Of a DNA stretch of 64,000 nucleotides, positions 4,955 to 20,224 are shown piece by piece; within the stretch, counting starts at the first letter, position 1, and each line of letters begins with the position of its first letter. Source of the stretch: a virus. Position numbers and translations under genes: made by a program. A model generated the notes under the pieces. That model was not told the origin of the DNA. It saw nothing but the letters and a program-made list of their open reading frames with translations, and searched no databases. Location of the stretch: IMG/VR virus record IMGVR_UViG_3300035102_000507; one strand, 5' to 3'.

Positions 4955-4957
4955 GCG

Positions 4958-5629
4958 TTACCTCAGAGCGAAAGCCCGGCTGGATTTGCCGAGGTAGTAG
5001 GAAATCTTCTGCTCGATCCGTTCGAAAATCTCGTCGCGTGACCCCTCGTAGACCGGGGTGATCAGATCGCGGGGCGGGCTCTCAATGGTGTCCTCCGCCG
5101 GAATGGGCAGCCCGGCCGCGCCGAAGAACCGCCGCATCTTGTCCGTGACGCGCGTGCTGAAACCGCGCTGCAATGACCACGCGCGGCGGGCCGCTGCCGG
5201 AGAGAGCCAGCCCACGCGCACGCGCATGAGCCGCTTGTCGCGGCGGTAGCCGACGGCCTTGACCAGCTGGCCGTATGCGTGGGTGGCGGGTTGCCGGAAG
5301 TGTCCCTTCGCATCATCGAGAACGCGCTGCTGCTGAATCTCGGACAGTTCGGGCCAGTTCTCGCCGGGCGGATCCTCGTCGTAGACCGTGTTCTTGATTT
5401 CCTGCTGCAACCACCAACCCGCAGACCCGAGAGCGCGGTTGAACTCGGACGGGAAGGTGCGCACCAGAAAAGCCATGAACGGAGCCGTGGTGTCCCGGAT
5501 GGCCACGCGGGCCCCGCCCCGGTGGGACGAGTAAAAGGGGTAGGTCCGGAGCACGGTCTTGCCCTGATGGCCCTTGACCGGAAAACGTACCGTGCCTTGG
5601 TATCCCTCGAAATCGCTCCAGCTGCTCAT
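4958..5629 (-). CDS. Putative neck / tail completion protein
   Basis: Basic, about 223 aa from ATG 5629 (MSSWSDFEG), in the neck module. Confidence 0.45.
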   Translation of the reverse strand: MSSWSDFEGYQGTVRFPVKGHQGKTVLRTYPFYSSHRGGARVAIRDTTAPFMAFLVRTFPSEFNRALGSAGWWLQQEIKNTVYDEDPPGENWPELSEIQQQRVLDDAKGHFRQPATHAYGQLVKAVGYRRDKRLMRVRVGWLSPAAARRAWSLQRGFSTRVTDKMRRFFGAAGLPIPAEDTIESPPRDLITPVYEGSRDEIFERIEQKISYYLGKSSRAFALR

Positions 5630-5973
5630 GCCGGACTGCTCCCACGTTGTTCGGCCACGCAGCGCAGGCGCCACCATATCGGCGTCGATGTGCGGGGCAG
5701 GGCATCCACCTGACGGATTTCGTACAGCCGGGTTTCGAACGCGATTTCGTCGCCGTACACGGGAGGTTCGGGATGATCCGACACGGCGAGGCGAAACGAA
5801 GCGTGGTGTCCCAATCCGTCGAACAGGTCGGCATCGAACCCCGACGGGGTGGAGCCGAACCCGAAGACGGTGACCACCGCACGGGTGGGCACCGCTTCAC
5901 CGGTCTCGGCCACGTAATCGACCGTGCGGCCGCATTCGTCGAGCATGGACCGGGCATGGTCTGACGTCAGCAT
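5626..5973 (-). CDS. Putative head-tail joining protein (FII-like)
   Basis: 115 aa with beta-rich character and a 4-bp overlap with the next gene; called from position. Confidence 0.5.
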   Translation of the reverse strand: MLTSDHARSMLDECGRTVDYVAETGEAVPTRAVVTVFGFGSTPSGFDADLFDGLGHHASFRLAVSDHPEPPVYGDEIAFETRLYEIRQVDALPRTSTPIWWRLRCVAEQRGSSPA

Positions 5974-5977
5974 GGCG

Positions 5978-6178
5978 TCAGTCCTCGCGTTCCGAGACAG
6001 GCAGCTCTTCCAGATCGGGCAGGGCTTCCAGCTCGCGGGTACGGGCGTTGTATTCCTCGGGCGTCGGCACGGTGTAGCCGTCGTCGGTCAGGGCTGCGGC
6101 TATCTGGGCGAACGTGGCCCCGACCCTGAGCGCGCCCTTGATCATCAGCAATACTTCCATGGTCCTGTCCTCCGACAT
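5978..6178 (-). CDS. Hypothetical protein
   Basis: 66 aa, GGAGG RBS, fits the operon. Confidence 0.6.
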   Translation of the reverse strand: MSEDRTMEVLLMIKGALRVGATFAQIAAALTDDGYTVPTPEEYNARTRELEALPDLEELPVSERED

Positions 6179-6182
6179 TGTC

Positions 6183-6758
6183 TTATCCTCCGAGGATTCG
6201 GTTCATCGCCGCCTTGGCCTGCGTCAGCAGGGACCGGGCCTTGTCCAGCAGGGCGGGCCAGTCTCCGGGACGCGTGCGGGAGTACCGCCACGTGTCTGTG
6301 GCGTTGCGCAGCAGCACGAGGACGGTCTTTGTCCGGTTGAGCAGCGGGGCCACATCCGTCTTGAGCTGTTTGCGGGTGTCGGGTTCGACCTGCGGCAGCA
6401 GCTGGCGGTATTGCGTATCGACACTTTCAAAGGCCGTGGTGATTTCGTCGGTCACGGCCACGGCCTGTTCGTGAGGCGGCAGGTTCTTGAGCGCGCAACC
6501 GGACAGGGCGGGGCCCAGCGTGACGATAAGAAGCACGACGCCGAGTCCGGTCTTGTCGGGCTTGCCCGCCACCACCTTGTCCCTGGCCTTGATGCGGCCG
6601 TAGATCGTCCCGACGGTGGTCGCCACGGCTGCCAGCAGCGTCAGGATTTTTTCCAGCTCGCCCGCCTGCACATCGAGGCCGAACAGGCTGAACAGCAGCA
6701 CGCCCATTCCGGCGAGGCTGGAAATGACGGTTTTCGATTGCAACAGATTCTTTTGCAT
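6183..6758 (-). CDS. Membrane protein: holin-like N-terminus plus internal lipobox (spanin-like candidate)
   Basis: MQKNLLQSKT...TIYGRIKA holin-like segment, then hydrophobic stretch ending LSGC; TGATG-coupled to the endolysin gene. Confidence 0.5.
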   Translation of the reverse strand: MQKNLLQSKTVISSLAGMGVLLFSLFGLDVQAGELEKILTLLAAVATTVGTIYGRIKARDKVVAGKPDKTGLGVVLLIVTLGPALSGCALKNLPPHEQAVAVTDEITTAFESVDTQYRQLLPQVEPDTRKQLKTDVAPLLNRTKTVLVLLRNATDTWRYSRTRPGDWPALLDKARSLLTQAKAAMNRILGG

Positions 6759-7300
6759 CAGACCTCCTGCAGTCTGCGGTTGAGCTCGGTGACGCGTCCC
6801 GTCCACCCGAGCAGGTATTTCATGCTTGCGGGCCGCTTCCGGCAGATGTCCCGGTAGTGGTCCATTCGGTTGAGCAGCAGGTCCTTGGCCAGCAACAGCG
6901 AGCGGGTGCGGGAGTTGCCGACGTAAAAGTCCATGGTGCCGATGGTGCGGGTGCCGGTCACGCCGTCCACCACCAGCGACGGGACTACCTCGCCGTCGAT
7001 GAACAGGGCGTTGATGCTTCGCTGGAGGATCCGACCGGCCGGACGGAGACCGAGGTTGACCGCCGTGTCGAACATGACCAGCGCCACATGGGCGGGCATC
7101 TGGTCGCAGTTCTGGGCGTGCCAGTAGTCGCGGCGGTAAATCTCCTTGGCGCCCGCACGGGTCAGGGCCGCGATATCCACGTCGGGGTACGCCCGCGCGG
7201 AGATACCGAATTTGGTTTCCCCGCCCGGATCGTCCGGGTCGTTCACATAGCCGCCCTCGTGCTCAAGCACGAAGGTGAGTGCGCATTCGAGACTGTTCAT
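6758..7300 (-). CDS. Endolysin, glycoside hydrolase family 108
   Basis: EGGYVNDPDDPGGETKFGIS signature; C-terminal segment resembles PG-binding 3 (Y.LGW..R). Confidence 0.9.
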   Translation of the reverse strand: MNSLECALTFVLEHEGGYVNDPDDPGGETKFGISARAYPDVDIAALTRAGAKEIYRRDYWHAQNCDQMPAHVALVMFDTAVNLGLRPAGRILQRSINALFIDGEVVPSLVVDGVTGTRTIGTMDFYVGNSRTRSLLLAKDLLLNRMDHYRDICRKRPASMKYLLGWTGRVTELNRRLQEV

Positions 7301-7773
7301 AAAGCCCTCCTGGGATCGCCGGAGTCCCGGCAGTGGCGCAGCCGCTCCATGAGCCATGCGGGCAGACGGATGCCCAGCGCGGCGAGATGGTCCGCTGCGG
7401 AGAGAAATTCGTTGATGGCCAGATACGCGATCATCAGATCCCGCGCGGGACTCTGGAGCCAGCTCGTGGAAATGGCCAGGTCCAGCACGTGGGCAATGGC
7501 GACGGCGATGACGTAGAGCAGAAACTTGCCGATGCCCTTGCGCATCTTCGCCAGCGACAGACGCCTTTCATAGAAGGCGCGCGAAAAGCCCAGCAGATAG
7601 TCGGCGCAGAACAGAATCGTAAGGGCGCCGAACGGCAGGTCGAACCCGCCGAGCAGCCAGCCCACGACGCCGAGGCAGGTGCCGCCGATGGCCTTGAGCC
7701 CGAACTGATCGGCAACGGGAGCGCAGAGGGCGCGCAGGGTGAGGATGGCGTCGAGGAAACTGTCGCTTTGCAT
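7297..7773 (-). CDS. Phage holin (holin_4_1-like)
   Basis: Several TM segments; DY..G..RA...LS..KMRKGI.K and INE..S...HLA..G...P.WL motifs. Confidence 0.8.
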   Translation of the reverse strand: MQSDSFLDAILTLRALCAPVADQFGLKAIGGTCLGVVGWLLGGFDLPFGALTILFCADYLLGFSRAFYERRLSLAKMRKGIGKFLLYVIAVAIAHVLDLAISTSWLQSPARDLMIAYLAINEFLSAADHLAALGIRLPAWLMERLRHCRDSGDPRRAL

Positions 7774-7790
7774 GACCGCTCCGGGGTTGC

Positions 7791-7832
7791 CCCCGCCTGC
7801 GGACCATGGGGGTGACGTGTCCGCAGGCGGGG
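7791..7832. repeat. 14-bp inverted repeat hairpin between the capsid and lysis genes
   Basis: CCCCGCCTGCGGAC / GTCCGCAGGCGGGG with a 14-nt loop. Confidence 0.8.
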
Positions 7833-7844
7833 ATGGTACGGAGG

Positions 7845-8177
7845 TTAACCCTTGTCGTCGGAGGTCCCGTTGGCGAGCTGGGCTTCCAGCCCCTTGGCGT
7901 ACTCCACGGCCTCGTCCAGCTTGGCTCTCAGGTCCTCGTTCTCGACCTTGAGGGTTCTGGCGGATTCGTTGGCACTGTCGAGCTTGGCCTTCATTTCAGC
8001 CGCCTCGGCGGACATGGGGGGAGTGGCCGGATCGTCCTCGCCGGGCAAAGCGGCCAGCCCTTCCTTGAGCAGGCGGTCGGCCTCGCTGACGGGGATGGGG
8101 TGGACCTTACCGGCGGCGTACTTGCGCTCGCCGTCGAACAGGGTCGCGAGCAGCTTGACTTTCTTGGTTTTGGCCAT
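7845..8177 (-). CDS. Hypothetical capsid-associated protein
   Basis: MAKTKKVK... 110 aa directly after the major capsid gene; coiled-coil C-terminus. Confidence 0.65.
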   Translation of the reverse strand: MAKTKKVKLLATLFDGERKYAAGKVHPIPVSEADRLLKEGLAALPGEDDPATPPMSAEAAEMKAKLDSANESARTLKVENEDLRAKLDEAVEYAKGLEAQLANGTSDDKG

Positions 8178-8179
8178 GG

Positions 8180-9181
8180 CTACACCACCTTGTTGTACAT
8201 GAACGCGCCGGGGTTCTTGGGCAGCGGCACCGGGCGGGATTCCATCAGGACGAACAGCGCGGAGGGGTCGTTCTCTTCGTACGTCTTGACGAACTTCTCG
8301 CAGGGGCCGGGGCACTTGAGGTCGTTGGGCAGGCCGAACTCAATGGAGTTGTCGGAGCTGCGGCTGCCGGCCACGGCATAGTCCGGGTGCAGCAGCTGCT
8401 TGGCCACGCCGTCCTCCTGATACGTGCCGCCGTAGACGTAGATGTCCACGCCGTTGACGTTGCCCTTGTACAGGCTCTTGACGCGGGGCGAGAGTTCGCC
8501 CACGTCAAGGCGGCGGTTGTCGAGCTTGTCGGCGATGCGGTCGCGGAAATGCTTCCACGCGTTCGTGCCCAGCACCACGGTGTCCATGCCGCAGCTGGAG
8601 GCTTCGAGGATCACGTTGTACCAGTCCTCGAACTGGCCCTCGGGATCGGCGCCGGGGTCGGACCACAGGGCGGTGCCGGACAGGGCCAGCTTGTTGTCGG
8701 CGGGCATGAGGTAGTCGATGTGCACCTTGGCGTCTTCGCCGGAGAGGGTGATCTCGCCGGTCAGGGCCATGGCGCAGTACAGTTCGTAGGTCAGCTCCAG
8801 CCGGTCGTCGAGGTTCTTGAGGTCGGCGGCCAGCTTGGCTTCGACGCGGTCCATCGGAGCGCCGGGGCTGCTGGGCGCGGTTCCCGGAACCTTTTCCTTC
8901 AAAAGGTCCGCTCCGGAATAAGGCAGTTTGGGGCGCAGCCGGGGAGCCTTGACGATGCGGCTTTCCCGAGACGTGGCGTCCACGACCTTACCGCGCGAAA
9001 CCTCGGAGACGACGGGAATAACTTCCTTGCCGCCGACCACGAGCTCCAGTTCCACGGTATTGGTCTCAAGCGCATTGCGCTTGCTGAAAAACAGTTCCTT
9101 GAACAGTCCCGGGAAATGCGGGAACCGCTCCACCACACCCATCATGGTGTAGATGTCGAACGGGTTGTATACAAAAGTCAT
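8180..9181 (-). CDS. Major capsid protein, lambda gpE family
   Basis: 333 aa, follows gpD-like gene; F..LFF..., E..CAMALTG.I and ESRPVPLP motifs. Confidence 0.9.
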   Translation of the reverse strand: MTFVYNPFDIYTMMGVVERFPHFPGLFKELFFSKRNALETNTVELELVVGGKEVIPVVSEVSRGKVVDATSRESRIVKAPRLRPKLPYSGADLLKEKVPGTAPSSPGAPMDRVEAKLAADLKNLDDRLELTYELYCAMALTGEITLSGEDAKVHIDYLMPADNKLALSGTALWSDPGADPEGQFEDWYNVILEASSCGMDTVVLGTNAWKHFRDRIADKLDNRRLDVGELSPRVKSLYKGNVNGVDIYVYGGTYQEDGVAKQLLHPDYAVAGSRSSDNSIEFGLPNDLKCPGPCEKFVKTYEENDPSALFVLMESRPVPLPKNPGAFMYNKVV

Positions 9182-9190
9182 CGCATCCTC

Positions 9191-9562
9191 CTAGATCACG
9201 AACAGGCCCACGCCGCGAAGCTGGGCGATGGCGGTTTTCTTCTCGGCTTCGGTGATGCCGTCGGGCCAGATCAGGCCGTCTTCAAGCATCTCGCCGTGGA
9301 TGTAGACGGGTGCCGCCTCGTCGCCGGCTGCGGGAACCGTGACGTCCATGGCCAGAACGCAGACAGCGGCATCGCTGCCGTCCGCGGCCGCCGGATCGAG
9401 CTGCACGTGTTTGTCCTCGGCGGTGATCACTCCGAGCACGGTGCCGGATTCGAGCGTGTACTCGGCTCCGGTGGACTTGAGCTGCACGCTGTCCATGATG
9501 GGCTGATGGTCGCCCACGAGCCTTCTGACAACGCGGGATATGGATTCGACGCCGTAGTTCAT
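9191..9562 (-). CDS. Head decoration protein, lambda gpD-like
   Basis: 123 aa; GTVLG..., A..VLA.D, VY..GE....LIWP motifs. Confidence 0.85.
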   Translation of the reverse strand: MNYGVESISRVVRRLVGDHQPIMDSVQLKSTGAEYTLESGTVLGVITAEDKHVQLDPAAADGSDAAVCVLAMDVTVPAAGDEAAPVYIHGEMLEDGLIWPDGITEAEKKTAIAQLRGVGLFVI

Positions 9563-9570
9563 GTCTCCTC

Positions 9571-10035
9571 CTAGCGGGTTGCGTGCTTGACCATGCGGTC
9601 GATACCGGCCTCGCGGGCCGCCTCTGCGTTGTCAGCGCGTGCGCCGCCCGGGTCCACGTTGTCCTGCATGGCGGCATGAAGGCCCTGCAGGATGGAGGCG
9701 CGAGAGTCTTCGGGCTGCTGCGCGTCCGGGTCCTGCTTGGCCGGATCTTCTCCGTTCTGCTGCGGCCCGTCTTTCTGTGGGATGACACCGAGCGCCGTGA
9801 CCTGTTCAGCGGTCAGGCCGGCTTCGACGCAGGCCTTGATGCGGGCGCTTGCCTTTTCGTCGAGCAGGGCTTCGACAATGCTCATGACGCGTTCGGTGGA
9901 ATCGGTGGCGGCCTTGGTCACCGCCTCGTCCAGCTCCTTGCGAACCTTGGCCTGTTCGTCCTGACTGACGCTGGCCACGATTTCGCGGACCGCCTCGGGG
10001 TATTCGGCCCGCAATTCCTTTGCCGTTTTGCTCAT
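9571..10035 (-). CDS. Nested in-frame scaffold protein (Nu3-like)
   Basis: Internal GGAGG RBS before ATG 10035 (MSKTAKELR), in frame with the protease. Confidence 0.6.
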   Translation of the reverse strand: MSKTAKELRAEYPEAVREIVASVSQDEQAKVRKELDEAVTKAATDSTERVMSIVEALLDEKASARIKACVEAGLTAEQVTALGVIPQKDGPQQNGEDPAKQDPDAQQPEDSRASILQGLHAAMQDNVDPGGARADNAEAAREAGIDRMVKHATR

Positions 10036-10833
10036 GGTCTCCTCCTTGATGAGTTTGATGAGCTGTTCCTTGGGCATGATGCCCTTCACCAGGCCGAGTC
10101 CGAGAGCGTCCTCAGCTCGGAAAACTTGTCCGTCCGCCCAGTCGTTCGCCTTTTCCGGGGCCAGCCCCATGTTCTGGGCGACGGTCTCCACGAACAGGCG
10201 GTAGTTGCCGTCAAGGCTGGCCTGCATGCAGTCGCGCGCTTTCTGGCTCAAGGGTTCATCGGGGTTGCCCAGCGCCTTGTATGCACCGGCGTGGAGCCAG
10301 GTGGGGGTGATGCCCACCTTGTCGTTGAACTTGCTCCAGTCCATGTGCAGGCGGAGCACGCCGATGGAGCCGACCGAGGCCGTGGGGGCGCTGGCGTAGA
10401 CGCGGCCGCCGGCGCTGCCCACCCAGTAGGCCGCGCTGGTCATCTGGCTGTTGGCCAGCGAGTAGACGGGTTTGACCGCGTTCGCTTCGCGAAGATATTC
10501 GCCAAGCTCGTACACCCCGGCCACGGTCCCGCCCGGGGAGTCCGTGTCGAGCAGAATGGCGTGGACGGAATCATCCCCCAGCGCCGCCGCAACGGACGCG
10601 CGAATGCCGCTGTACGACTGACGGAACCACGAGCGCGGCGAGAGGCTGCCCGTGACGGGGATCACGGCCACGCCGCCATCCACCTTGTAAGGCACCGTTT
10701 CCGCATCGCTTCCCGGAAAAACCAGCGATGCCGTTTCCTTGTCCCGGACGGCGTGCAGGACTCCGGCAAGAGCGTCTTCGGTGATGGCCCACGACGAGCC
10801 GAACAGGTCGGTGGGATCAGGCTGCATTGTCAT
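9571..10833 (-). CDS. S49 prohead protease / scaffold (lambda gpC-like)
   Basis: DSPGG, SAAYW and VGSIGV motifs; C-terminal scaffold-like region. Confidence 0.9.
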   Translation of the reverse strand: MTMQPDPTDLFGSSWAITEDALAGVLHAVRDKETASLVFPGSDAETVPYKVDGGVAVIPVTGSLSPRSWFRQSYSGIRASVAAALGDDSVHAILLDTDSPGGTVAGVYELGEYLREANAVKPVYSLANSQMTSAAYWVGSAGGRVYASAPTASVGSIGVLRLHMDWSKFNDKVGITPTWLHAGAYKALGNPDEPLSQKARDCMQASLDGNYRLFVETVAQNMGLAPEKANDWADGQVFRAEDALGLGLVKGIMPKEQLIKLIKEETMSKTAKELRAEYPEAVREIVASVSQDEQAKVRKELDEAVTKAATDSTERVMSIVEALLDEKASARIKACVEAGLTAEQVTALGVIPQKDGPQQNGEDPAKQDPDAQQPEDSRASILQGLHAAMQDNVDPGGARADNAEAAREAGIDRMVKHATR

Positions 10834-12292
10834 CTTCCTCCTTCAGACCGGCCTCATGGAGACGCTGTTTTTCGCGCTTGCGCTGGTCCACGGTGTCTTC
10901 CCAGTCCTGCCCCTGTTCGGCGGCCACGTCGGCCAGCGTGAAGATGCCGGCATCAAGGCCCTTGATGTAGGACACGACTTCCTTGACCGGATCCACGTAG
11001 CCCCGGGCCGGGCCGATCCAGCGGGCGCGCGTCCAGAGCTGACGGGCGTCGTAGAAGTCAGGACCGGAGCCGGTGGACCACATGCCGCGCAGGAAGGCCT
11101 CCTCGATCACGCAGTTCCAGCAGATCTGGGCGAAGTGGGCGCCGGCGTGGGCACGGTAGATCTGGAACATGCGCCACGCTTCGAGCATTGCGGCACGGGC
11201 GCTGGAATAGTTGGATTCGGAAAAGTCCTTGCTCAGGACCTCGTAGGGGATGTTCAGGCTGGCGCTCATGGCGCGCAGGACCACCTTGGAAAATTCCACG
11301 AAGTTGGGGCCGGGAATGTTGGAGGAAAGCGTGCGGGCGTCGTCGCCCGGGCGGCCATAGAGGACCTGTCCCGGGGCGTATTCCTGCACCAACGGATATT
11401 CCTCAGCTTCGAAATCCTGTTGACCGCCGAGTGCGGGCAGGGTCGGCGGACCGCTCTGGGACGAGATGAACACCGGGAATGATGCGGCGATGATCTGGCC
11501 GATGAGGCTGTAGTCCAGTGCCGTGTCAAGCTGACGATGCAGTTTTGCGCCAGAGGAAAACACGCTGCGGCCTCGGTACATCTCCGGCTGGGTGTAGCGG
11601 TAGCAGTGGATGAATCCGGGCCAGTGCCCGCGCCGGGCCGGAACCCGCTCGAAGTCCGGCGAGCTCAGGGTGGCGGCGGGCGTGCCTTTGGGCGGGTTGC
11701 CTACCCAGTACGCCACCGGACGGCCGTCGTCGTCGATCTCCACGCCGTCGATGATGTCGGTTCGCGTCTGCATGTTTGCGGGCGTCGCCACGCGCTGAGG
11801 GTGCAGGTCGAGCAGGCAGAACCCGAAGGTCCTGCCGGGCGCCTTGGACATGCGCGGCAGGAAAACGGAGTCGCCGAGCGACAGCATGGTGGAGATGTTC
11901 ATGAACTGCAGGTCGCCGAACGTGGCGAGTCCGCGGCTGTGGGATTCGGTCTGCCACAGCTCGAACGCGGCTTCCATGTCGGCCTGGATCTGCATGGCCT
12001 CGTCTTCGGGGATGCCGAGCAGGCGGTAGGGGAGGGAGGACTGTGCCCGCAGCCCCCGGCCGATCACGTTGGCGGCTGTGGACTCGATGGCTCCGGCCGC
12101 GAACGGATCCGACTCGACGAGCTCCTCGGCCCGGCGCTGGATCAGGCTGCGTTCCGTAGCCTCTTCATGGGGGGAAATAACTTGATGCGGCGCCCAGCCT
12201 GTGTATCCCGTACCGTAGCGACCTGCGGGACGACGAACCGGACGGCGGCCGCGCGGTCGAATTGCGGGAGATTTCAGCTTGCGAAAGCTCAT
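10817..12292 (-). CDS. Portal protein, lambda family
   Basis: 491 aa; N.IG.GL, SESNYSSARAA, W..P....VDP.KE motifs. Confidence 0.92.
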   Translation of the reverse strand: MSFRKLKSPAIRPRGRRPVRRPAGRYGTGYTGWAPHQVISPHEEATERSLIQRRAEELVESDPFAAGAIESTAANVIGRGLRAQSSLPYRLLGIPEDEAMQIQADMEAAFELWQTESHSRGLATFGDLQFMNISTMLSLGDSVFLPRMSKAPGRTFGFCLLDLHPQRVATPANMQTRTDIIDGVEIDDDGRPVAYWVGNPPKGTPAATLSSPDFERVPARRGHWPGFIHCYRYTQPEMYRGRSVFSSGAKLHRQLDTALDYSLIGQIIAASFPVFISSQSGPPTLPALGGQQDFEAEEYPLVQEYAPGQVLYGRPGDDARTLSSNIPGPNFVEFSKVVLRAMSASLNIPYEVLSKDFSESNYSSARAAMLEAWRMFQIYRAHAGAHFAQICWNCVIEEAFLRGMWSTGSGPDFYDARQLWTRARWIGPARGYVDPVKEVVSYIKGLDAGIFTLADVAAEQGQDWEDTVDQRKREKQRLHEAGLKEEDDNAA

Positions 12293-12513
12293 CGCACGGG
12301 CCTCCCCGCAACGATGGTCAATCCGCCGGGCTTGCCGTCGAGCTTGTTCAGCTCGTCCTCGGCATAGTCGAGCATACTGCGCAGCGCTCGGATGCTGGCC
12401 AGCGTGTAGCTCTCGCCCTCGATCTCCACGGTCTGACCCGCCGCCACGCGCCTGAGTGCGCTCTTGTAGACGCCGATCAGCTCAACGAGTTCCTGTCTGG
12501 TCCATACGCTCAT
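12289..12513 (-). CDS. Head-tail joining protein gpW-like
   Basis: 74 aa just upstream of the portal with a 4-bp overlap; GQTV.I.GE.YT.A motif. Confidence 0.8.
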   Translation of the reverse strand: MSVWTRQELVELIGVYKSALRRVAAGQTVEIEGESYTLASIRALRSMLDYAEDELNKLDGKPGGLTIVAGRPVR

Positions 12514-12548
12514 GCCCCGGAGCTTGATGCTCGCGGCCTGTGATTGTC

Positions 12549-12575
12549 ACGGAACAGACGGAACAGACGGAACAG
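12549..12575. repeat. Tandem 9-bp repeat (ACGGAACAG)x3 plus a partial fourth copy
   Basis: Read directly at 12549-12575; about 36 bp upstream of the gpW ATG. Confidence 0.9.
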
Positions 12576-12580
12576 AACGG

Positions 12581-12625
12581 AAAAATATTCGGGGCTGACA
12601 TGGATATCCATGTCAGCCCCGAATA
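12581..12625 (-). terminator. Perfect 40-bp palindrome plus U-tract ending the ktr operon
   Basis: TATTCGGGGCTGACATGGAT|ATCCATGTCAGCCCCGAATA at 12586-12625, followed by TTTTT on the minus strand. Confidence 0.7.
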
Positions 12626-12656
12626 GTATGTCAGGTTGAAGGAGAACGCGTGCTCA

Positions 12657-13307
12657 TCAAAGCTCAAGAACATCTCTGGCATGCCCGAGTATGATGAGAA
12701 CATCACCATCGCAAAGGGGTCTGCTGGCGTCCGGTACAAAGCTAAAATGACCTTCACCACAATACTTAATCGCCACCACCTGAACATTGTGTTTGTTGGT
12801 CAAGTTTAAATCGACCAGTGTTCGTCCAGCCCACTTTGTGACAACCAGCTCCCGCGTCAGGACATCCTCACCCAAGTCCAAATAATCCATTATGCCGGGA
12901 ACTGCCAGCTTGTGGGCAATCTGCTTTGCGACAAATTCCTCGGGAAAGACGACAAAGCTGACCCCAAGGCGCTGAAGAACTTTTTCATGCTGTGCGCTGA
13001 CAACTTTAACCCAAATATTGTCAACACCAAGCTCTTGCAGGTTCAAAACGGTTAGTATGCTGGCTTCCATTGATTTCCCAATGGATACGATTACTTGATC
13101 AAGTTCGTTGAAGCCAAGTTGTTTCAGTACGGCTATGTCGGTCCCGTCCGCTTGGTAGACCTGAGGCATGATGTTTCGTACTTTTTGAACATTTGATTCA
13201 TGTCTATCGATGGCGATGACCTCTTGCTTGAGGTTGAGAAGCGTTTCCGCAAGTGCACCGCCAAATTTTCCAAGTCCGATGATTCCGATTTGTTTCATCC
13301 TACTCAT
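12657..13307 (-). CDS. ktrA: Ktr/Trk potassium uptake regulatory subunit (RCK_N + RCK_C)
   Basis: IGIIGLGKFG Rossmann motif, AID, QADGT, PE...A; AAGGA RBS before ATG 13307. Confidence 0.9.
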   Translation of the reverse strand: MSRMKQIGIIGLGKFGGALAETLLNLKQEVIAIDRHESNVQKVRNIMPQVYQADGTDIAVLKQLGFNELDQVIVSIGKSMEASILTVLNLQELGVDNIWVKVVSAQHEKVLQRLGVSFVVFPEEFVAKQIAHKLAVPGIMDYLDLGEDVLTRELVVTKWAGRTLVDLNLTNKHNVQVVAIKYCGEGHFSFVPDASRPLCDGDVLIILGHARDVLEL

Positions 13308-13320
13308 GTGGCATCCTTGA

Positions 13321-14682
13321 TTAGCCCAAAGGCAGGCTGTCCTGAGGCAAACGATATTTTGGGAAAGACTGCCAGCTCTGCAATGCCGCCAGCATCCACA
13401 CTGGACCAAGACGGCCGACGAACATCAAAACTATCAGGACACCCTTGCCAAAGCTGGAGAGAGTGTCCGTGATCCCCGTCGAAAGCCCTACCGTTCCAAA
13501 TGCGGATACGACTTCGAACAGGGTGTCGAGGAAATGCCCTCTAACCATACTATGAGGCATGTCTCCCCCTTCGCTCACTTCAAGCAAAAGCACAGCCCCC
13601 GCCACAAGTGCCAAGGCAAAAATTAAGAGTGTTAAGGCTCTGTTCAGGGAAGCCGCGTCAAGGGCGAAGCGCCCGATTCTCGCCTGAGAGCCGCCACGAA
13701 CCTGTGATACGATAAATGCAAAGATTGCCCGGAAGGTGGTGGTCTTGATGCCGCCGGCGCACGACCCCGGAGAACCGCCTATGAACATGAATGCCAGCAT
13801 GAAAACAAGAGTGACATTGGTAAGACCGCCGATGTCAACGGTGTTGAACCCTGCTGTCCTGCAGGTCACTGAATTGAAGAAGGCAACAAGCATTTGGGTT
13901 GAAATGTCCAAGTCGTTTTGGCCGCCATTGTGCTCCGCCAAAAAGAATATGACTGCGCCTCCCAAAAGAAGAAATGCTGTTGTTTTCAGGACAACACTCG
14001 TGTGCCAACTGAAGAAGTAGGCCCCTGTCCTTGGTTTTCTCCCGGAAAGAATACCAATGGCCTTGGAAGATACTTCGTGAAGGACATAAAACCCCAGGCC
14101 TCCAAGAATGATCAGTAGCATGAAAACGGTATTTACAGACCAGTCTGCCTGCCACTGTGTAAGGCTGTCCGGCTGTAGCGCAAATCCGGCATTGCAAAAG
14201 GCACTGACAGAATGAAATGCCGCCGACCAGACGGAAAAATTGGCGTCGGTAAGAAAATATAGGCAGGCCGCGCCAGCCAGTTCCAGGCCGAATGCCCCGA
14301 GGACTATCCTCAGCAGAAAGGATTTCAGGCTGAAGCCGGGGTCATGAAGGAGGGTGTTACTGACAGCCATCCGGTCTGCCAGTGAAACATGTCTGCCAAG
14401 AAGGTACATGACCAAGCTGGTGTAAGTCATGACGCCAAGCCCACCAAGCTGGATCAGAATCAAAATGACTGCTTGGCCGTATTGGGAAAAAACGCTCCCG
14501 GTATCCACAACGATAAGCCCGGTAACGCACATCGCTGACGTGGCCGTAAAAAGGCTGTCCAACCATGACAACTCGGCTCCGGGATGGGCCGCGTCAGCGT
14601 GAAGCAGCACGGTTCCAAGCAGTATCCCGGCAAGGAAGAAATATATGGGCAACCAGAACGGCTGAAGCGGTTTGAAGCGCAT
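13321..14682 (-). CDS. ktrB: Ktr/Trk potassium uptake membrane subunit
   Basis: Four pore-loop motifs: TSAMCVTGL, SAFCNAGF, TCRTAGF, SAFGTVGLS; LMFVGRLG near the C-terminus. Confidence 0.92.
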   Translation of the reverse strand: MRFKPLQPFWLPIYFFLAGILLGTVLLHADAAHPGAELSWLDSLFTATSAMCVTGLIVVDTGSVFSQYGQAVILILIQLGGLGVMTYTSLVMYLLGRHVSLADRMAVSNTLLHDPGFSLKSFLLRIVLGAFGLELAGAACLYFLTDANFSVWSAAFHSVSAFCNAGFALQPDSLTQWQADWSVNTVFMLLIILGGLGFYVLHEVSSKAIGILSGRKPRTGAYFFSWHTSVVLKTTAFLLLGGAVIFFLAEHNGGQNDLDISTQMLVAFFNSVTCRTAGFNTVDIGGLTNVTLVFMLAFMFIGGSPGSCAGGIKTTTFRAIFAFIVSQVRGGSQARIGRFALDAASLNRALTLLIFALALVAGAVLLLEVSEGGDMPHSMVRGHFLDTLFEVVSAFGTVGLSTGITDTLSSFGKGVLIVLMFVGRLGPVWMLAALQSWQSFPKYRLPQDSLPLG

Positions 14683-14779
14683 GCGGCGAGTTCTACGCCG
14701 TAGGCCTGCCGCTTGCAAGTTCTAAATTACCGGTTGTTCGGCAGCGAAGGCACGGCTCGGACCGTGTTGTATGTGATAG

Positions 14780-14977
14780 TTAGTCTTCAGACATTTGCTG
14801 TCTGGATTTCTCCATAAATGTCTGGATGTCGGAAAGAGGAACTCGGATCCCGCGAGGGCCGACTCGGAAAGCCTTGGGGAATTCCCCTTTGTTGATGAGT
14901 TCATAAAACGTTGTCTTGCCGATGTTCAACATCTTGCAGACCGTCTTGTAGTTCAGAGCCGGATCCTCGTGCGTCAT
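14780..14977 (-). CDS. AlpA/Xis-family winged-HTH protein
   Basis: 65 aa, MTHEDPALNYKTVCKMLNIGKTTFYELINKGEFPKAFRVGPRGIRVPLSDI; GAGGT RBS. Confidence 0.85.
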   Translation of the reverse strand: MTHEDPALNYKTVCKMLNIGKTTFYELINKGEFPKAFRVGPRGIRVPLSDIQTFMEKSRQQMSED

Positions 14978-14979
14978 GA

Positions 14980-16965
14980 TTACCTCGAAAACCAGGTTGG
15001 GCGCGTCCCCACCAGAGAACCTTGTCTGGCCGGGCGGGCTGTGGGTTGTTTGGGGGCGGAGCCGGGCCGCTTGAGGAAGGGACCGCCGAGCGCATACCAT
15101 GCGGCCCTCGCGTACACCTCGCAGTCCCAGTAATGGTTGTCCTTGTGGTCCGGACAGAGCCAGACGCGCTTTTCCTCGTCGAACCATTCCGCGCAGAGCT
15201 GCTGGGCGTAGTCCTGAGACGTGTCCGCGTGCAGGTGGAACATGCCCGGATCGCCCGGTTCGATGGCCATGGCCGCAGCGAGGTCGTTCTTGAAAAAGGT
15301 CGTGTCGATCTGCATGAGGCTCAGTCCGCCCGGGATGCGGCTCTTGGTGCCGGGGTAGTATTCGATGTCCGAATACTTGACCGGCGTGGCCGCCAGATAC
15401 TGCTTGCCCTGAATGGGCATGATCTTGCCCCGGTGCCCGGCGCAATACTGGTAGACTTCGCGCGTCCGGTCTCCCATGGCATCGATGAGCGTCAGCCGGA
15501 TGGGGTGCACGTTGCCGTCGGCGTCCCGGTATTCCGAGCCCCAGAGCACGGACGTCAGGTCCTCGAAGGTAACGACCTGACCGGCACGCACCAGCCAGCT
15601 CTCCCAGTTCTCTCCGTAGGCAAACGCGCGTATGGAGTAGTAGAAACCGCGCTTCTGGGTATCCACGCCGGCCACGAGCCCGGCGATCAACGACCGTTCG
15701 CCTTCGGGCGTGGCGGGCACGCGGCCGCGTGGACGGCTGTCGCACAGTGCCAGTATGCGGTCTTCGTCGCGCTGGATCTCGTACTCCTGCCACGGCTCCG
15801 CCTTGATGGCGTTCATGAAGTGACGCAGGTGGGCCATGCGCTGCCGGTTCTTCTTGTCGTTTCCCTTGAGGAACCAGTAGACGCATTCGGACAGGGAGAC
15901 GAAGGTCGAAAGCCACGCCGGGATATGGAACGCCACGGACTTGGGTTCGGCCTGCCGCAGATGCTGCGCCAGTTCCATGCCCGTGGACTGCTCTCGCCAC
16001 TGCCCGGCGCGCACCGCGCGGTCGCGCGCCGAGTCATCCCAGAATCCGCCGCAGTGGGGACATTCGTACCAGGCAAGGGCCTTGTTCTTGATGACTTCGG
16101 GGTTCCGCTCGTCTTCGGGAAATTTGATCTGGTCGAAGGCCATGACATGGAACATGCCGCACTCGGGACAGCGCACCCAGAACTCGAAGCGGGCCACCGC
16201 GTTGTTCCACGCCAGCCAGATCGGCCCGTCCTCGGTGGTCGGGGTGCTGATGCGCCAAACCTTCTTGTTGTAGCGATAGGTCGTGGTGCGGGCCAGCGCC
16301 AGCGATATGGGGTCGGCCTCGTCCTTGCTGGTCAGGCGCGGATACTTGTCCACTTCATCCAGCACGAGATAGCGGATAGGGCGGTTCCCGAGTCGGGATA
16401 CCGACCGCGCCCATGCCATGTAGAGCGGCATGCCCACGAGCTTGAGCTTGATCCCGGTCTTGTCGTTGTCGCTGCCGGACAGCAGGTCGCGGAGCTCCGG
16501 GGATTCCTCGAACATGGGGGTGATGCGTTCGCGGTTGTTGTCCTTGGCCGTTTCAATGTCGGGATAGACGAACATGCCAGGGCCCGGGTCGAAGCTGGAG
16601 GCGTAGCCGATGCAGTTGTTGACGAACTCCGAACCGCCGACCTGAGGGGACTTGATGACGGCCACGTCCTGTACCGCCGGGTGAAAACTCGATTCCATGA
16701 TGCCCGTCAGGTAGGGCGTGCGCGAGTTGCGCCACGGTCCCGGCTTCGAGCTCATCGACAGGACGCGGGCGTGCTCGACCCACTTGCTGATGGGTTCGCG
16801 CCGACGCTTGCGCATGACCTTTCGCACCTGATGCCCGAGCCCGAATCGGTGGCGCTGCGCCTCAAGGCACAGGGTCCGCACGGACTCGGGCAACCAATCG
16901 GGCGGAGTGACGCGCACCCGGCGGACCTTGTTCTTCTGCTTCTGCGGGGGGACGGGTTTAAGCAT
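14980..16965 (-). CDS. Terminase large subunit, lambda GpA family
   Basis: KSPQVGGSE Walker A, LVLDEVD Walker B, ISTPT, CPECG..CPHC zinc motif, GVDTQ, NHYWDC. Confidence 0.95.
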   Translation of the reverse strand: MLKPVPPQKQKNKVRRVRVTPPDWLPESVRTLCLEAQRHRFGLGHQVRKVMRKRRREPISKWVEHARVLSMSSKPGPWRNSRTPYLTGIMESSFHPAVQDVAVIKSPQVGGSEFVNNCIGYASSFDPGPGMFVYPDIETAKDNNRERITPMFEESPELRDLLSGSDNDKTGIKLKLVGMPLYMAWARSVSRLGNRPIRYLVLDEVDKYPRLTSKDEADPISLALARTTTYRYNKKVWRISTPTTEDGPIWLAWNNAVARFEFWVRCPECGMFHVMAFDQIKFPEDERNPEVIKNKALAWYECPHCGGFWDDSARDRAVRAGQWREQSTGMELAQHLRQAEPKSVAFHIPAWLSTFVSLSECVYWFLKGNDKKNRQRMAHLRHFMNAIKAEPWQEYEIQRDEDRILALCDSRPRGRVPATPEGERSLIAGLVAGVDTQKRGFYYSIRAFAYGENWESWLVRAGQVVTFEDLTSVLWGSEYRDADGNVHPIRLTLIDAMGDRTREVYQYCAGHRGKIMPIQGKQYLAATPVKYSDIEYYPGTKSRIPGGLSLMQIDTTFFKNDLAAAMAIEPGDPGMFHLHADTSQDYAQQLCAEWFDEEKRVWLCPDHKDNHYWDCEVYARAAWYALGGPFLKRPGSAPKQPTARPARQGSLVGTRPTWFSR

Positions 16966-17497
16966 CGCTGAAAATCACCTCCAGACTGCCGCTTGTGGCC
17001 AGCTGCGTCAGTTCCTCGTCAAGGATGGAGTCCAGCAGCTTCTTCAATTCGTGCTCACGTTCAGGGTCTCCCCGGACCGCCTCGATGAGTCGGGTCGCGT
17101 CGTCCTGAAAACGTTGCTTCACCAGCGACTTGATGGCGGTGACCACGCCTGCCATTTCCAGATAATGGTCCTCGCGGGGGATGTGCTTGCCTTCTAGAAT
17201 CTCCAGTTCGCGCGCCTCTCTCTGTTGCCGCTGCTCCTCTCGGAGCGTGCTGGCGATGAGCTTGCGCTGCTGCCATTCGTCCACCGGAAAATCGTCCGCC
17301 TCCTTCTCGGGAGGGACGTCAAGAGACTTGAGGGTGGTGGCGTACTGGCGCAGCGAGGCGGGGGGGATGGTATTGTCCGGCAGGACCTCCACGGTCCCGG
17401 CATTACAGTCCTTGTAGAACTTGGACTTTCCTATCTTGTAGCGGGAGCTCAGCCAGCGAAGAGCCTCGGCCTTGGTGAGGTGATCCGGTATGTCCAT
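16958..17497 (-). CDS. Terminase small subunit
   Basis: 179 aa overlapping the GpA start; N-terminal HTH-like and coiled-coil regions. Confidence 0.75.
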   Translation of the reverse strand: MDIPDHLTKAEALRWLSSRYKIGKSKFYKDCNAGTVEVLPDNTIPPASLRQYATTLKSLDVPPEKEADDFPVDEWQQRKLIASTLREEQRQQREARELEILEGKHIPREDHYLEMAGVVTAIKSLVKQRFQDDATRLIEAVRGDPEREHELKKLLDSILDEELTQLATSGSLEVIFSDA

Positions 17498-17576
17498 GCG
17501 TCACTCCTTGGGTTCTTCGCGATTCATAGCGGCTGGTCGGTCTGAGACTCAACCTTTCTGCGTATCTGTCGTGAAG

Positions 17577-17614
17577 AAAACAAAAGGCCGGCGACGCAGG
17601 AAGCGTCACCGGCC
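17577..17614 (-). terminator. Intrinsic terminator after the BRO gene
   Basis: GGCCGGTGACGC-TTCCT-GCGTCGCCGGCC followed by TTTTGTTTT on the minus strand. Confidence 0.8.
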
Positions 17615-17642
17615 TGTGAAGGCGTGGGTATGAATTCGGCGG

Positions 17643-18437
17643 TCAACCGCCACCGGCGGTGGGAACGAGGTTGTAGAATACGCGGCTGGTTGGCGAAACC
17701 TGCACCACGCCGGGCACCCGCTTGAGGTGACGCCCGAAGGTGTTGTGGCTTGGAACAGCGTCATGCTCAATGCCCTGTTCCTCACGACACCAGTCAACAA
17801 ACCGTTTGTACAGGTGGATGGCCTGAGTCTTGAGTCGTCGCGGCATGGTGCCTCGGACGACGTCTACCACCTCGTAATGTGCGGCTATGAACTCTCGCAC
17901 CAGTTCCCCCGGACCGTCCGACGTGCCATGGGGTTCTCCGGCGGGATCGCTCTTGGCGCTGAACAGGTGGCAGAACTCGGCGTACAGGCGTTTCACGTCG
18001 TCTTCGCAGCCATCGCCGAGCTTGGCGGTCTGCACGGCGGTATGCATGGCCTGAGCGCGAAGCGCTGGTTTGAGTCGCAATGACGCGCAGGGGATGGCTC
18101 CCGCGTGACCGGCAGCTTCGTATCGCCCCTGTCTGCGGATGGCCGGGAGCACCTCGGAAGTGACCCACTTGCGGAAGCGCCTTGCTTCAGGCTTGCGGGA
18201 GCGAAAAACCAAGCCATAAAGCCCAGACTCGGAAATGATGTTCACTTCCTGCCTTCCACCAAGGGTGTCGGTATTACCGACCCCCTTTTCATCATCGTCT
18301 AAACGTGAAAGAGCATCGCGTGGATTACCAATATCAAGCACCCCACAAATATCCTTCGCCACGAACCACGGCTCGTCTTCGCGCATGACCACCCGCACCG
18401 CGTCGCCGTCAAAATCGAACGGAATCACGCTACTCAT
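17643..18437 (-). CDS. BRO-N domain antirepressor
   Basis: F.FDG..VRVV...EPWFVAKD.C.VL, ISESGLY.L.FRSRKPEA..F.KWVTSEVLP.IR. Confidence 0.9.
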   Translation of the reverse strand: MSSVIPFDFDGDAVRVVMREDEPWFVAKDICGVLDIGNPRDALSRLDDDEKGVGNTDTLGGRQEVNIISESGLYGLVFRSRKPEARRFRKWVTSEVLPAIRRQGRYEAAGHAGAIPCASLRLKPALRAQAMHTAVQTAKLGDGCEDDVKRLYAEFCHLFSAKSDPAGEPHGTSDGPGELVREFIAAHYEVVDVVRGTMPRRLKTQAIHLYKRFVDWCREEQGIEHDAVPSHNTFGRHLKRVPGVVQVSPTSRVFYNLVPTAGGG

Positions 18438-18711
18438 GGGCAGCCTCCCTTGAACGGGCGACGGGCTTCTCTGATGTGGTGCAGAGGGCGATCGGTCCGA
18501 ACTGCTCCTCGATGGCCTCGAAGGTCTCCGCAAGCCTGTTCCAGTGCTTGTCCACCATTTCGCCCAGCAGAACGCGAACGCTTTCGACGTCTGCCTCGCT
18601 GCCCCGCAGGGTGTCCCCGAGGCATTGCAGCGGCTGGATCAGGCCGTACAGATACATGTCCAATGATTGAAAACGGTGGTGCGGGCTGTCGTAGATGTCT
18701 TTTTCGCCCAT
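18430..18711 (-). CDS. Hypothetical protein, first gene of the antirepressor operon
   Basis: 93 aa, AAGGAG RBS overlapped by the antisense target site. Confidence 0.65.
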   Translation of the reverse strand: MGEKDIYDSPHHRFQSLDMYLYGLIQPLQCLGDTLRGSEADVESVRVLLGEMVDKHWNRLAETFEAIEEQFGPIALCTTSEKPVARSREAAHE

Positions 18712-18757
18712 GGTGGCAACTCCTTGTGTTTTCTAATGCCCCCCACGAAATATGGAA

Positions 18758-18831
18758 GCCGGGAGTTAGAACCCCACAAGGCAGGGCTGGGTATTTTAGG
18801 CCGAAGCCTTGGACATTTCCCCACTCCCGGC
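18758..18831 (-). ncRNA. C4-like antisense RNA (prophage A)
   Basis: GCCGGGAGU/ACUCCCGGC closing stem, AGGC-UUCG-GCCU hairpin, loop GCCUUGU and GUUCUA complementary to the upstream (18930-18946) and downstream (18722-18735) sites. Confidence 0.7.
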
Positions 18832-18959
18832 AAATATTTTGGATACATTGCGCCCAGTAGATCTGAAAGACAAACAAGGCAATGAGCTATGGGCACAAAA
18901 AACCGCACTCTGACGGGGTGGCGGCGTCCGCCTTGTGGAGTTTCTACGCTCCGTAGCAA

Positions 18960-18990
18960 ACAACTCGCCACAAACCGTCATGGATGTCAA
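18960..18990 (-). promoter_or_regulatory. Putative promoter of the c4-antirepressor operon
   Basis: TTGACA at 18990-18985; TTGACATCC...GGTTTGTGGCG is conserved with the locus at 52344. Confidence 0.5.
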
Positions 18991-19000
18991 GAAGGAAGGT

Positions 19001-19369
19001 TCAGTCGTCCTGCACAGGACGGTTTTGCCCCTCAAGTTTCTGATGACAGTGTTTGCAAAGAATAGCGTCCTGTCGAATCGCTTCACGACAGAAAGGGCAT
19101 CTGTATGTGGGTGGACCTGTCGTGCTCGGTTTATTGGACACCATTGCGCCTATGAGGCCCCAACCGTTCGAGCCGCCCCCCAAATTTTTCCCGCAACGGT
19201 CGCATCGCCATGGCTTCTTCTCCATAGAGGTGGACCCCCAAACCAGTATCCAAAGCCCGCATGTGAGCACCGAGAGCAAAAGGTGAAGCAGATGATTTGG
19301 TGTGTGCCGGGTGATTTTTACGTGGTCTTCACATTGCGGGCAGTATGCCGTTGAAGATTCAATGCCCAT
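19001..19369 (-). CDS. LITAF-like membrane-anchored zinc-binding protein plus zinc ribbon
   Basis: CPQC - NHLLHLLLSVLTCGLW - CDRC, then CPFC...CKHC. Confidence 0.65.
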   Translation of the reverse strand: MGIESSTAYCPQCEDHVKITRHTPNHLLHLLLSVLTCGLWILVWGSTSMEKKPWRCDRCGKNLGGGSNGWGLIGAMVSNKPSTTGPPTYRCPFCREAIRQDAILCKHCHQKLEGQNRPVQDD

Positions 19370-19467
19370 GGTTACCTCCCATGTCGTTTGTGTGAAAACG
19401 CATGAAAGATAGAATAACGCGTATTGCTTGGCAATCCGAATTCGGGAGGGTGCCCAGTCAGGCAGGG

Positions 19468-19998
19468 TTATTGCTGTTCCGATTCAGCCTGTTCCGTCGG
19501 TGTCGGTTCGGCGGTATGGTTGGGGGGAGTGTCGTTTTTGCCGTTACGCCGGGTGATGAAAATACCGACAACGGAAGCCAGCGTTGCGCCGCAGAGAACG
19601 ATGCCCCATCCGGGATGTCCTGCGTGGATGGAATAAGCCCCGGCCGCTATAGCCATGGTGCAGAAGAAAAGCGCGAACCATTGGCCGCGAGCTTCGGCTT
19701 TGCGTTCGTCCCGGACGTCGCTCGTCTGGGCCGAGACAACCGTGGATTCGATTTCGTGGCGGTGGCTTTGTTCCTTTTCGGCCATGGCGATGATGCGTTC
19801 GGCCGTGCCGGGAGCTATTTGCTCATAACGGTTCAGGGTCTCCGGGTCGGGGATCGGCCCTTCGTAGTGAGTTACCTGCTGAGCCATCAACAAGGAGTGC
19901 TGTCCCTCGCCGCCCGAGGATTGAGAAGACCCCGTCCCGCCTTTCTGGACGGTGGACGGGGCCTTTTTGCTCTTTTGCTCTTTGTTACGATTAGACAT
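19468..19998 (-). CDS. DUF2335-like membrane protein
   Basis: GP.P.PE.L..YE.I.PG.AERII.MAEKEQ.HR motif plus two C-terminal TM helices. Confidence 0.8.
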   Translation of the reverse strand: MSNRNKEQKSKKAPSTVQKGGTGSSQSSGGEGQHSLLMAQQVTHYEGPIPDPETLNRYEQIAPGTAERIIAMAEKEQSHRHEIESTVVSAQTSDVRDERKAEARGQWFALFFCTMAIAAGAYSIHAGHPGWGIVLCGATLASVVGIFITRRNGKNDTPPNHTAEPTPTEQAESEQQ

Positions 19999-20224
19999 GA
20001 TGTTGCTGTCGTATTGCTTTCCGGATGTCGTTGCCGACCTTCTCGTAGTCAGTTCGAAGCCTCTCGCCATCGGACAGGCTGAGCCGTTCGGCCGCCATCT
20101 TGTCAAGCTTGACTCGACTCGGTCCCTTTTTCCTGTGTGCAAGGACAACCATCCCGCCAAGTGCGGTAACGAAAAATCCTAACAGGTTACGGGTAGGCAT
20201 GGAATCACGCTCCAGATTATGCAT
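19991..20224 (-). CDS. Small protein paired with DUF2335
   Basis: 8-bp overlap with the next gene; D.E.L..D...VG.D.R.AI motif; start could be 20200. Confidence 0.6.
   Translation of the reverse strand: MHNLERDSMPTRNLLGFFVTALGGMVVLAHRKKGPSRVKLDKMAAERLSLSDGERLRTDYEKVGNDIRKAIRQQHHV

Follow-up and report, generated by a model that had tools for sequence, protein, structure and literature searches.

A complete ktrB-ktrA potassium uptake cassette in a cargo slot of the packaging module of a lambda-like prophage

The IMG/VR virus record IMGVR_UViG_3300035102_000507, a stretch of 64,000 nucleotides that we analysed at full length (hereafter the window), carries the genes of both subunits of a Ktr potassium uptake system, ktrB and ktrA, inside the DNA-packaging module of a prophage. 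The carrier is a lambda-like prophage of the siphovirus type, and its host is a sulfate-reducing member of the Desulfovibrionaceae related to Salidesulfovibrio. The two genes are intact and lie in a slot between terminase and head genes that holds other cargo in a nearly identical prophage. On balance, we lean towards the view that this cassette is an accessory K+ uptake system, probably expressed in the lysogen, that was acquired horizontally as exchangeable cargo of the prophage.

An intact Ktr pair among intact packaging genes

KtrB matches the TrkH family of Pfam (PF02386) over residues 26-426 with 209.6 bits (E 9e-62; cut-off 27), and its closest solved structure is that of Bacillus subtilis KtrB (E 4e-67). 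The alignment of these two proteins places all four filter glycines in the P loops (VTG55L, NAG166F, TAG278F and TVG399L), and G55, G166, G278 and G399 are invariant across the alignment of homologues. The glycine-rich intramembrane loop of D3M2b (GGSPGSCAGGIKTTTF) aligns with FIGAGSASTASGIKLTTF of the B. subtilis protein, and the conserved arginine of D4M2 is retained (VGRLGP, aligned with IGRIGP). KtrB keeps 131 of the 134 positions that are conserved in at least 95% of 119 chromosomal homologues; as a control, chromosomal KtrB sequences lack from 1 to 10 of the same positions. KtrA has both expected domains, TrkA_N (residues 8-122, 89 bits) and TrkA_C (residues 157-215, 32.8 bits), and the closest solved structures are B. 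subtilis KtrC (E 4e-41) and KtrA (E 4e-37). Its Rossmann motif GxGxxG (G11-L-G13-K-F-G16) aligns, together with Asp34, with these two proteins, and 45 of 47 family-conserved positions are retained, the two changes (G to A and A to V) being conservative. The first-pass annotation had described ktrB as intact, with all four selectivity-filter glycines, and ktrA as intact, with GxGxxG and both RCK domains, and the alignments and domain searches agree. To judge from their sequences, both proteins look functional, with no sign of decay or altered function.

The pair spans positions 12657-14682, exactly from the stop of ktrA to the start of ktrB, with both genes on the minus strand. Pfam and PHROG matches of the flanking genes confirm the annotated position between terminase/alpA and gpW/portal. 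The surrounding order is that of lambda-like head and packaging genes (gpA-type TerL, gpW, lambda-family portal, S49 or gpC-like protease, gpD-like and gpE-like proteins). The region comprises, in the direction of its genes:

16958-17497, minus strand: open reading frame at the position of the small terminase, 179 aa; no family match
14980-16965, minus strand: large terminase TerL of the lambda gpA type, 661 aa, intact (Pfam GpA_ATPase 232 bits, GpA_nuclease 187 bits)
14780-14977, minus strand: alpA-like winged helix-turn-helix gene, 65 aa (Pfam HTH_17 45 bits, Phage_AlpA 25 bits; TIGR01764 excisionase family 39 bits)
14683-14779, minus strand: leader between alpA and ktrB, 97 nt; nothing in the promoter and terminator scan or in Rfam
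13321-14682, minus strand: ktrB, K+-translocating membrane subunit of the TrkH/KtrB family, 453 aa (Pfam TrkH 209.6 bits)
12657-13307, minus strand: ktrA, cytoplasmic gating subunit of the RCK type (TrkA_N and TrkA_C), 216 aa (Pfam 89 and 32.8 bits)
12586-12625, minus strand: intrinsic terminator closing the terS-terL-alpA-ktrBA unit; perfect 18-bp stem, 4-nt loop, TTTTT
12548-12574, minus strand: three tandem 9-bp repeats (TGTTCCGTC twice, TGTTCCGTG once) upstream of gpW, the first backbone sequence past the cargo
12289-12513, minus strand: gpW-like head-tail adaptor, 74 aa (phrog_118, E 4e-8)
10817-12292, minus strand: lambda-family portal, 491 aa, intact (Pfam Phage_portal_2 256.7 bits; TIGR01539 196 bits, above cut-off)
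2-10833, minus strand: remaining morphogenesis module with S49 protease, gpD-like decoration protein, gpE-like capsid protein, holin, endolysin, tail completion protein, tail tube and tape measure (PHROG matches)

The start of alpA lies 2 nt past the terL stop and that of ktrA 13 nt past the ktrB stop (the KtrA product has 213 aa if its second methionine is the start). As the first-pass annotation had noted, the cassette is more AT-rich than its flanks, with a G+C content (GC) of 51% vs 64-65% in the neighbouring head genes; alpA has 49%, and all but the 5' third of that gene falls in the variable segment described below. The concern that the insertion had inactivated packaging finds no support, as the genes flanking the cassette are intact and 97-100% conserved between copies (TerL is 99.8% identical to that of the copy in the nearest genome, G001, and the gpW-like adaptor 98.6-100% identical to other copies). 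Further into the morphogenesis module, Pfam recognises Peptidase_S49, HDPD and Phage_cap_E on an identical contig (L008); the tape measure gene is truncated by the edge of the window, and tail-fibre genes are present in the 98% identical copy of G001.

The arrangement recurs in independent samples. Public contigs from different samples, at least seven in number, encode an identical KtrB protein, in every case in the order TerL-AlpA-KtrB-KtrA or KtrB-KtrA-gpW-portal, and the same cassette is found on one IMG/VR contig. Half or more of the sampled words of the cassette were present in six sequencing runs from about five studies of oil-field, subsurface and soil metagenomes (two of these six runs may be the source sample), and smaller shares were present in runs of further studies, including groundwater, for 11 studies in all. 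The presence of the same cassette at the same place in independent metagenome contigs excludes an assembly artefact. One could still point to the several public contigs that end at the edges of the cassette (at 12596 or near 14777) as the mark of a chimera between host ktrBA and phage DNA, but the 40-nt palindromic terminator accounts for the break at 12596. It is the only place where the contigs aligned to the region break (in two Logan runs), and the pieces on either side overlap it. Both junctions are spanned by contigs of different samples (alpA-ktrB in L007, L009 and run X3; ktrA-gpW in L008 and L061), and the cassette DNA is only 67-71% identical to the chromosomal ktrBA of the nearest genome, so that we regard a chimera as extremely improbable.

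A cargo slot, and the origin of its Ktr cassette

The nearest genome has the same prophage, collinear with positions 1-24055 of the window at 96-98% identity and 98-99% identical on both sides of the slot. In place of ktrBA it carries a 466-aa gene with SLFN_AlbA_2 and HATPase_c_4 domains (38% GC) and a small secreted protein. Upstream, the two copies part inside alpA, where identity falls after some 60 nt of the gene, from 98% to about 75%, and the 3' part is a different allele; downstream, homology resumes at the triple 9-bp repeat just before gpW. That ktrBA is extra cargo of the packaging module, as first proposed, is thus borne out by a near-identical prophage with other cargo at the same site, together with the recurrence of the cassette in independent metagenomes. 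The SLFN_AlbA_2 and HATPase_c_4 gene (L005:6484-7884; G001:C13:21483-22883) matches pAgo-associated models of PADLOC (E 3e-20) and is a candidate defence gene.

We surveyed the slot in 20 sampled gpA-terminase prophages of the same bacterial family. An alpA homologue directly follows TerL in 12 of these, and the gap from alpA to gpW/portal measures 0.4-3.8 kb. Where cargo is present, it lies between the alpA stop and the repeats before gpW. The inserts are MqsR/MqsA (twice), BrnT with an MqsA-like antitoxin, Gp49/HI1420, a SoFic-type Fic protein, a NACHT-like and pentapeptide pair, and a protein with two transmembrane (TM) helices and a borderline match to an ion channel family; the toxin-antitoxin cargo of these more distant relatives is of the MqsRA, BrnTA and HigBA-like types. 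The alpA-to-gpW interval is a cargo hotspot, and this is new in the present analysis. The 2-TM protein (L055:4613-5500, on G234:C1, minus strand) has 295 aa, a gene of 33% GC and both helices near its N terminus; it reaches 22.3 bits with Ion_trans_2 (cut-off 22.5) and has a pore-like motif, TLYFGE, without the canonical GYG.

The downstream edge of the slot is equally regular. In 13 of 13 related prophages gpW is preceded by an array of two to five tandem repeats (8-10 bp each) with a short palindrome; the repeat sequence varies by phage, and in most relatives with upstream sequence shown the repeats follow a hairpin with a T-run. Since every gpW has its own repeat array, the downstream late genes are likely to be independent of read-through. 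The number of 9-bp TGTTCCGTN units before gpW (12548-12580) is itself polymorphic, as runs X3 and X4 have 18 additional nt, i.e., two extra units, at 12548.

Copies of the cassette are almost invariant among phage variants. From alpA to ktrA they differ at only two to three nucleotides (single changes in alpA and in the leader, and a synonymous one in ktrB), and the coding sequences of ktrBA by that one synonymous change in 2013 nt, while TerL differs by 2.9% and the protease by 4.9%. In run X4, an alternative sequence is joined at the alpA stop. The near-invariance of the cassette across backbones and this junction point to its recent exchange, presumably by recombination at the edges of the slot. 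On either side of the alpA stop (14772-14777), contigs of X4 diverge from the window, with loose ends of 159 and 31 nt, so that more than one cargo or alpA variant is present in that sample. One ktrBA-carrying variant (L007:3363-7725) has DAM-like-phage1/GNAT-phage-like and DUF488-like genes upstream of the terminase, where the window has a Bro-N antirepressor, and because of this difference we consider that the cassette resides in mosaic backbones.

The closest relatives of the cassette are chromosomal. The best non-phage matches of KtrB are 70% identical (at a chromosomal aroK-ktrB-ktrA-aroC locus), 68.5% (the chromosome of G001) and 67% (Salidesulfovibrio brasiliensis), and KtrA is 68-69% identical to its closest chromosomal relatives. 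The maximum likelihood tree places the phage KtrB as sister to the chromosomal pair of G001 and P0002 (ultrafast bootstrap 96, SH-like approximate likelihood ratio test 86), on a branch of its own of length 0.43, and all three inside a clade with S. brasiliensis supported at 100/100. In the comparison with host ktrAB that the first-pass annotation had proposed, the phage protein is sister to the chromosomal KtrB clade of the host genus and yet only 68-70% identical to it. GC at third codon positions (GC3) is 0.60 in the phage ktrB and 0.49 in ktrA, compared with 0.73-0.78 in chromosomal ktrBA and 0.81-0.85 in the phage head genes. In the chromosomal loci aroC directly follows ktrA, with no terminator, and the leader and trailer of the cassette align with nothing in these loci. 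Given the 67-70% identity, the lower GC3 and the unrelated leader and trailer, the cassette may come from a related, unsampled lineage of lower GC or may have circulated for long in mobile DNA. Passive capture from the current host, raised earlier as a way for the cargo interpretation to fail, fits poorly with 68% identity to the chromosomal copy of the nearest genome and with the differing codon-position GC; by these measures of divergence the cassette was not captured recently from the present host.

A megablast of window positions 8000-20000 against the phage collection returned no match, and tblastn of KtrB against the same collection returned only matches of at most 37% identity, which we do not count as precedents, being mostly unannotated multi-contig records that resemble host contamination. 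Further ktrB-ktrA pairs, of 28-45% identity, occur on other IMG/VR contigs. On contig L065 the pair has host-type flanks (P-type ATPase, histidine kinase, ABC transporter), and on L069 its neighbours are an SNF2 helicase, a fragment of a recombinase and a methylase. Neither of these two contigs has Ktr inside a structural module, and we regard them as ambiguous. A search of the genome contigs with TerL returned no relative; the relatives used here came from a family-wide genome search.

The remainder of the window holds a different element. Homology to the G001 prophage ends at 23984-24140, where two copies of GGGTAGC and a terminator hairpin are succeeded by the partial 3' end of a tRNA-like sequence, not called by ARAGORN. 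The corresponding site of G001 has a complete tRNA-Arg(ACG). The integrase gene of a second, different prophage (24136-25254) adjoins this end, and because it follows directly, the window contains two prophages in tandem. The early region of the second prophage has a HicB-family antitoxin gene with a small upstream open reading frame in an island of 46% GC (33353-34188), beside an S24 repressor-like gene (34215-35021). Within the first prophage, the window and G001 copies are collinear except for an indel of about 0.9 kb near a DUF2335 gene (window 19373-19389 vs G001:C13:27979-28878).

Expression and possible function

We favour a role in the lysogen. In this model, ktrBA is held in the slot behind TerL and the alpA-like gene and ahead of the terminator and a putative tandem-repeat/promoter module, which would restart transcription at gpW, portal and head genes. 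The products are predicted to assemble into a normal KtrAB complex, in which an octameric KtrA ring that binds nucleotides gates the pore of a KtrB dimer. The chromosome of G001, our proxy for the host, already encodes TrkH and KtrB, so the phage copy would be additive and not replace a missing system: a lysogen would gain a third K+ route of the Trk/Ktr type beside chromosomal TrkH and KtrBA. Ktr systems have a role in the first response to osmotic upshift, and the extra route might aid K+ accumulation after such an upshift in saline subsurface and oil-field waters. This reading is favoured because the other cargo types of the slot act in the lysogen and because it agrees with the osmotic role of Ktr and with the saline subsurface settings from which the runs come.

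The transcription signals are those of a moron only in part. The terminator past ktrA, announced in the first-pass annotation, is strong (18-bp stem and U5, -38.6 kcal/mol, z -6.0; none of 200 shuffles was as stable) and lies inside cassette-specific sequence. The different cargo of the close relative and the foreign composition also agree with the moron architecture then proposed, as does the variable filling of the site (other cargo in the G001 prophage, little or no insert in L050 and L060). The promoter expected of a moron was not seen: a consensus scan of the coding strand of the 97-nt ktrB leader found no sigma-70-like promoter. The scan covers the sigma-70 type only, and a weak or alternative-sigma promoter may be present. 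No c-di-AMP or other riboswitch was found by Rfam in 12200-15200, where the only matches were spurious ones of miRNA families to the terminator palindrome.

Several observations weigh against our preferred reading. Besides the lack of a promoter match upstream of ktrB, the scan found no terminator between alpA and ktrB, and for these two reasons the cassette may be transcribed only together with terS-terL-alpA in lytic growth. The sequencing runs matching the stretch include no RNA run. KtrB stays below the curated cut-off of TIGR00933 (2a38), at 297.3 vs 331.15 bits, although the match is strong (E 2e-88). The single substitution among the phage copies of ktrBA is too few to gauge selection since acquisition, and the link between salinity and habitat comes from run labels only. 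Finally, trkG of E. coli is largely silenced by H-NS, which illustrates that such cargo can sit unexpressed (PMC9898762).

It is possible, in our tentative estimate, that ktrBA is instead an auxiliary of the lytic cycle, and we take this as a serious rival. As the tail of the terS-terL-alpA unit, expressed after induction or infection, it would uphold cytoplasmic K+, turgor and membrane potential during virion production and so raise burst size, e.g., by offsetting K+ loss from infection or holin priming. By its position the cassette does belong to the terminase transcription unit, given the 2-nt spacing of terL and alpA, the leader ahead of ktrB with no promoter-like site and no terminator, and the strong terminator only after ktrA. 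Yet an 8-TM transporter produced at the packaging stage would have little time to act, the promoter scan was limited to the sigma-70 type, and the other cargo of the slot (toxin-antitoxin pairs, SoFic, Schlafen-like ATPase) is of kinds that act in the lysogen. It is unlikely, in turn, that the cassette is a neutral or silenced passenger, picked up recently in a recombination hotspot and spread by homologous exchange of its flanks with no function now under selection. The near-identity of the cassette between diverged backbones fits recent spread, the slot takes many unrelated inserts and trkG in the Rac prophage offers an H-NS-silenced example; nevertheless, both reading frames retain almost every residue that is invariant in the family, although they have diverged by about 30% from their closest chromosomal relatives, the terminator appears tailored, being absent from the chromosomal loci where aroC follows directly, and limits on phage genome size penalise 2.3 kb of useless DNA.

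We give still less credence to a role in exclusion, defence or counter-defence, in which an altered K+ flux or membrane potential blocks DNA entry by superinfecting phages or, in a variant, the transporter buffers the lysogen or the phage against abortive-infection systems that depolarise the membrane. The slot otherwise holds defence-type and toxin-antitoxin cargo, and the 2-TM protein of L055 has its borderline Ion_trans_2 match (22.3 vs 22.5 bits), so that one could imagine a slot recruiting ion-flux modules (KtrBA and the L055 protein) for phage-phage or phage-host conflict and not for ordinary osmoadaptation, an idea that we likewise find improbable. Against a role in exclusion or defence, KtrB and KtrA match no PADLOC model and resemble ordinary housekeeping Ktr subunits, the L055 protein has no canonical G[YF]G filter, and we know of no defence system based on Ktr or Trk.

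If the cassette does serve the lysogen, a temperate phage would be moving a self-sufficient K+ uptake system between strains, i.e., phage-mediated transfer of osmoadaptation in the deep subsurface. The sulfate reducers that live in oil reservoirs and saline aquifers are a cause of souring and corrosion, and their distribution is shaped by how much salt they tolerate. The slot matters in its own right: an alpA-like gene, a terminator and a putative tandem-repeat promoter bracket a site at which toxin-antitoxin, defence and transporter cargo are swapped, which makes it a useful place to seek new accessory genes in a little-studied phage group.

Comparison with known systems

The view that K+ uptake genes are unknown as cargo of temperate phages is not supported, given trkG in the Rac prophage of E. 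coli K-12 and Kup in phiLM21-like prophages of Sinorhizobium meliloti. TrkG, like the phage KtrB, is a K+-translocating subunit of the Trk/Ktr/HKT superfamily in a lambdoid prophage. Its gene immediately follows the lysis remnant of Rac (rzpR/rzoR) and precedes what remains of the tail genes, in the late region where packaging and head genes begin, and it is regarded as phage-transduced. Both trkG and the phage ktrB have a lower GC than the host paralogue and are additive to a chromosomal paralogue (trkH for trkG). The differences are also clear. Rac carries the membrane subunit only and relies on the TrkA of the host, whereas the present cassette has KtrB and KtrA; Rac has lost its head genes by deletion and is defective, whereas all morphogenesis genes of the present prophage that can be seen in the window and in the G001 copy are intact; and trkG is H-NS-silenced. 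The present cassette occupies a defined alpA-gpW slot in a Desulfovibrionaceae host. If our reading is right, the prophage is a cleaner, apparently still active counterpart of Rac with trkG. Kup is listed among the cargo of the phiLM21-like prophages of S. meliloti (PMC12429752). It is likewise an annotated K+ uptake gene in prophages, in this case of a soil bacterium, and differs in belonging to the single-subunit KUP family.

The KtrAB systems of B. subtilis (PDB 4J7C, 8K1S) and Vibrio alginolyticus (7ZP9) have the same two-gene organisation and domain content as the phage pair and share with it the four filter glycines, the intramembrane gating loop, the D4 arginine and the GxGxxG of KtrA. 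They are chromosomal housekeeping genes and are about 35-40% identical to the phage proteins. B. subtilis ktrAB has a c-di-AMP riboswitch leader, whereas none was found by Rfam for the phage ktrBA, and the arginine of GLGRFGG in B. subtilis KtrA is a lysine in both the phage KtrA and its Salidesulfovibrio homologue. The nearest relatives, the chromosomal ktrBA of Salidesulfovibrio/Pseudodesulfovibrio type (aroK-ktrB-ktrA-aroC; KtrB 67-70%, KtrA 68-69%), have the same gene order and the same short spacing between ktrB and ktrA. They differ from the phage genes in their flanks, in having no terminator after ktrA and in their higher GC3, and the phage KtrB falls outside the host-genus clade.

Classical morons and cargo hotspots include bor and lom of lambda, the morons of HK97 and HK022, and the defence hotspots of P2 and P4. 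Like them, ktrBA is a foreign gene set between conserved late genes, absent or different in close relatives and provided with its own terminator. Unlike them, it occupies a slot between a regulator-like alpA and the repeats before gpW, and the sigma-70 scan found no promoter for the cargo. Prophage-borne K+ transporters were thus already known. What is new here is that both Ktr subunits occur together, that the carrier prophage has intact morphogenesis genes as far as they are visible (the data do not extend to its left end and integrase), and that the cassette sits at a clearly delimited site of the packaging module whose content is exchangeable.

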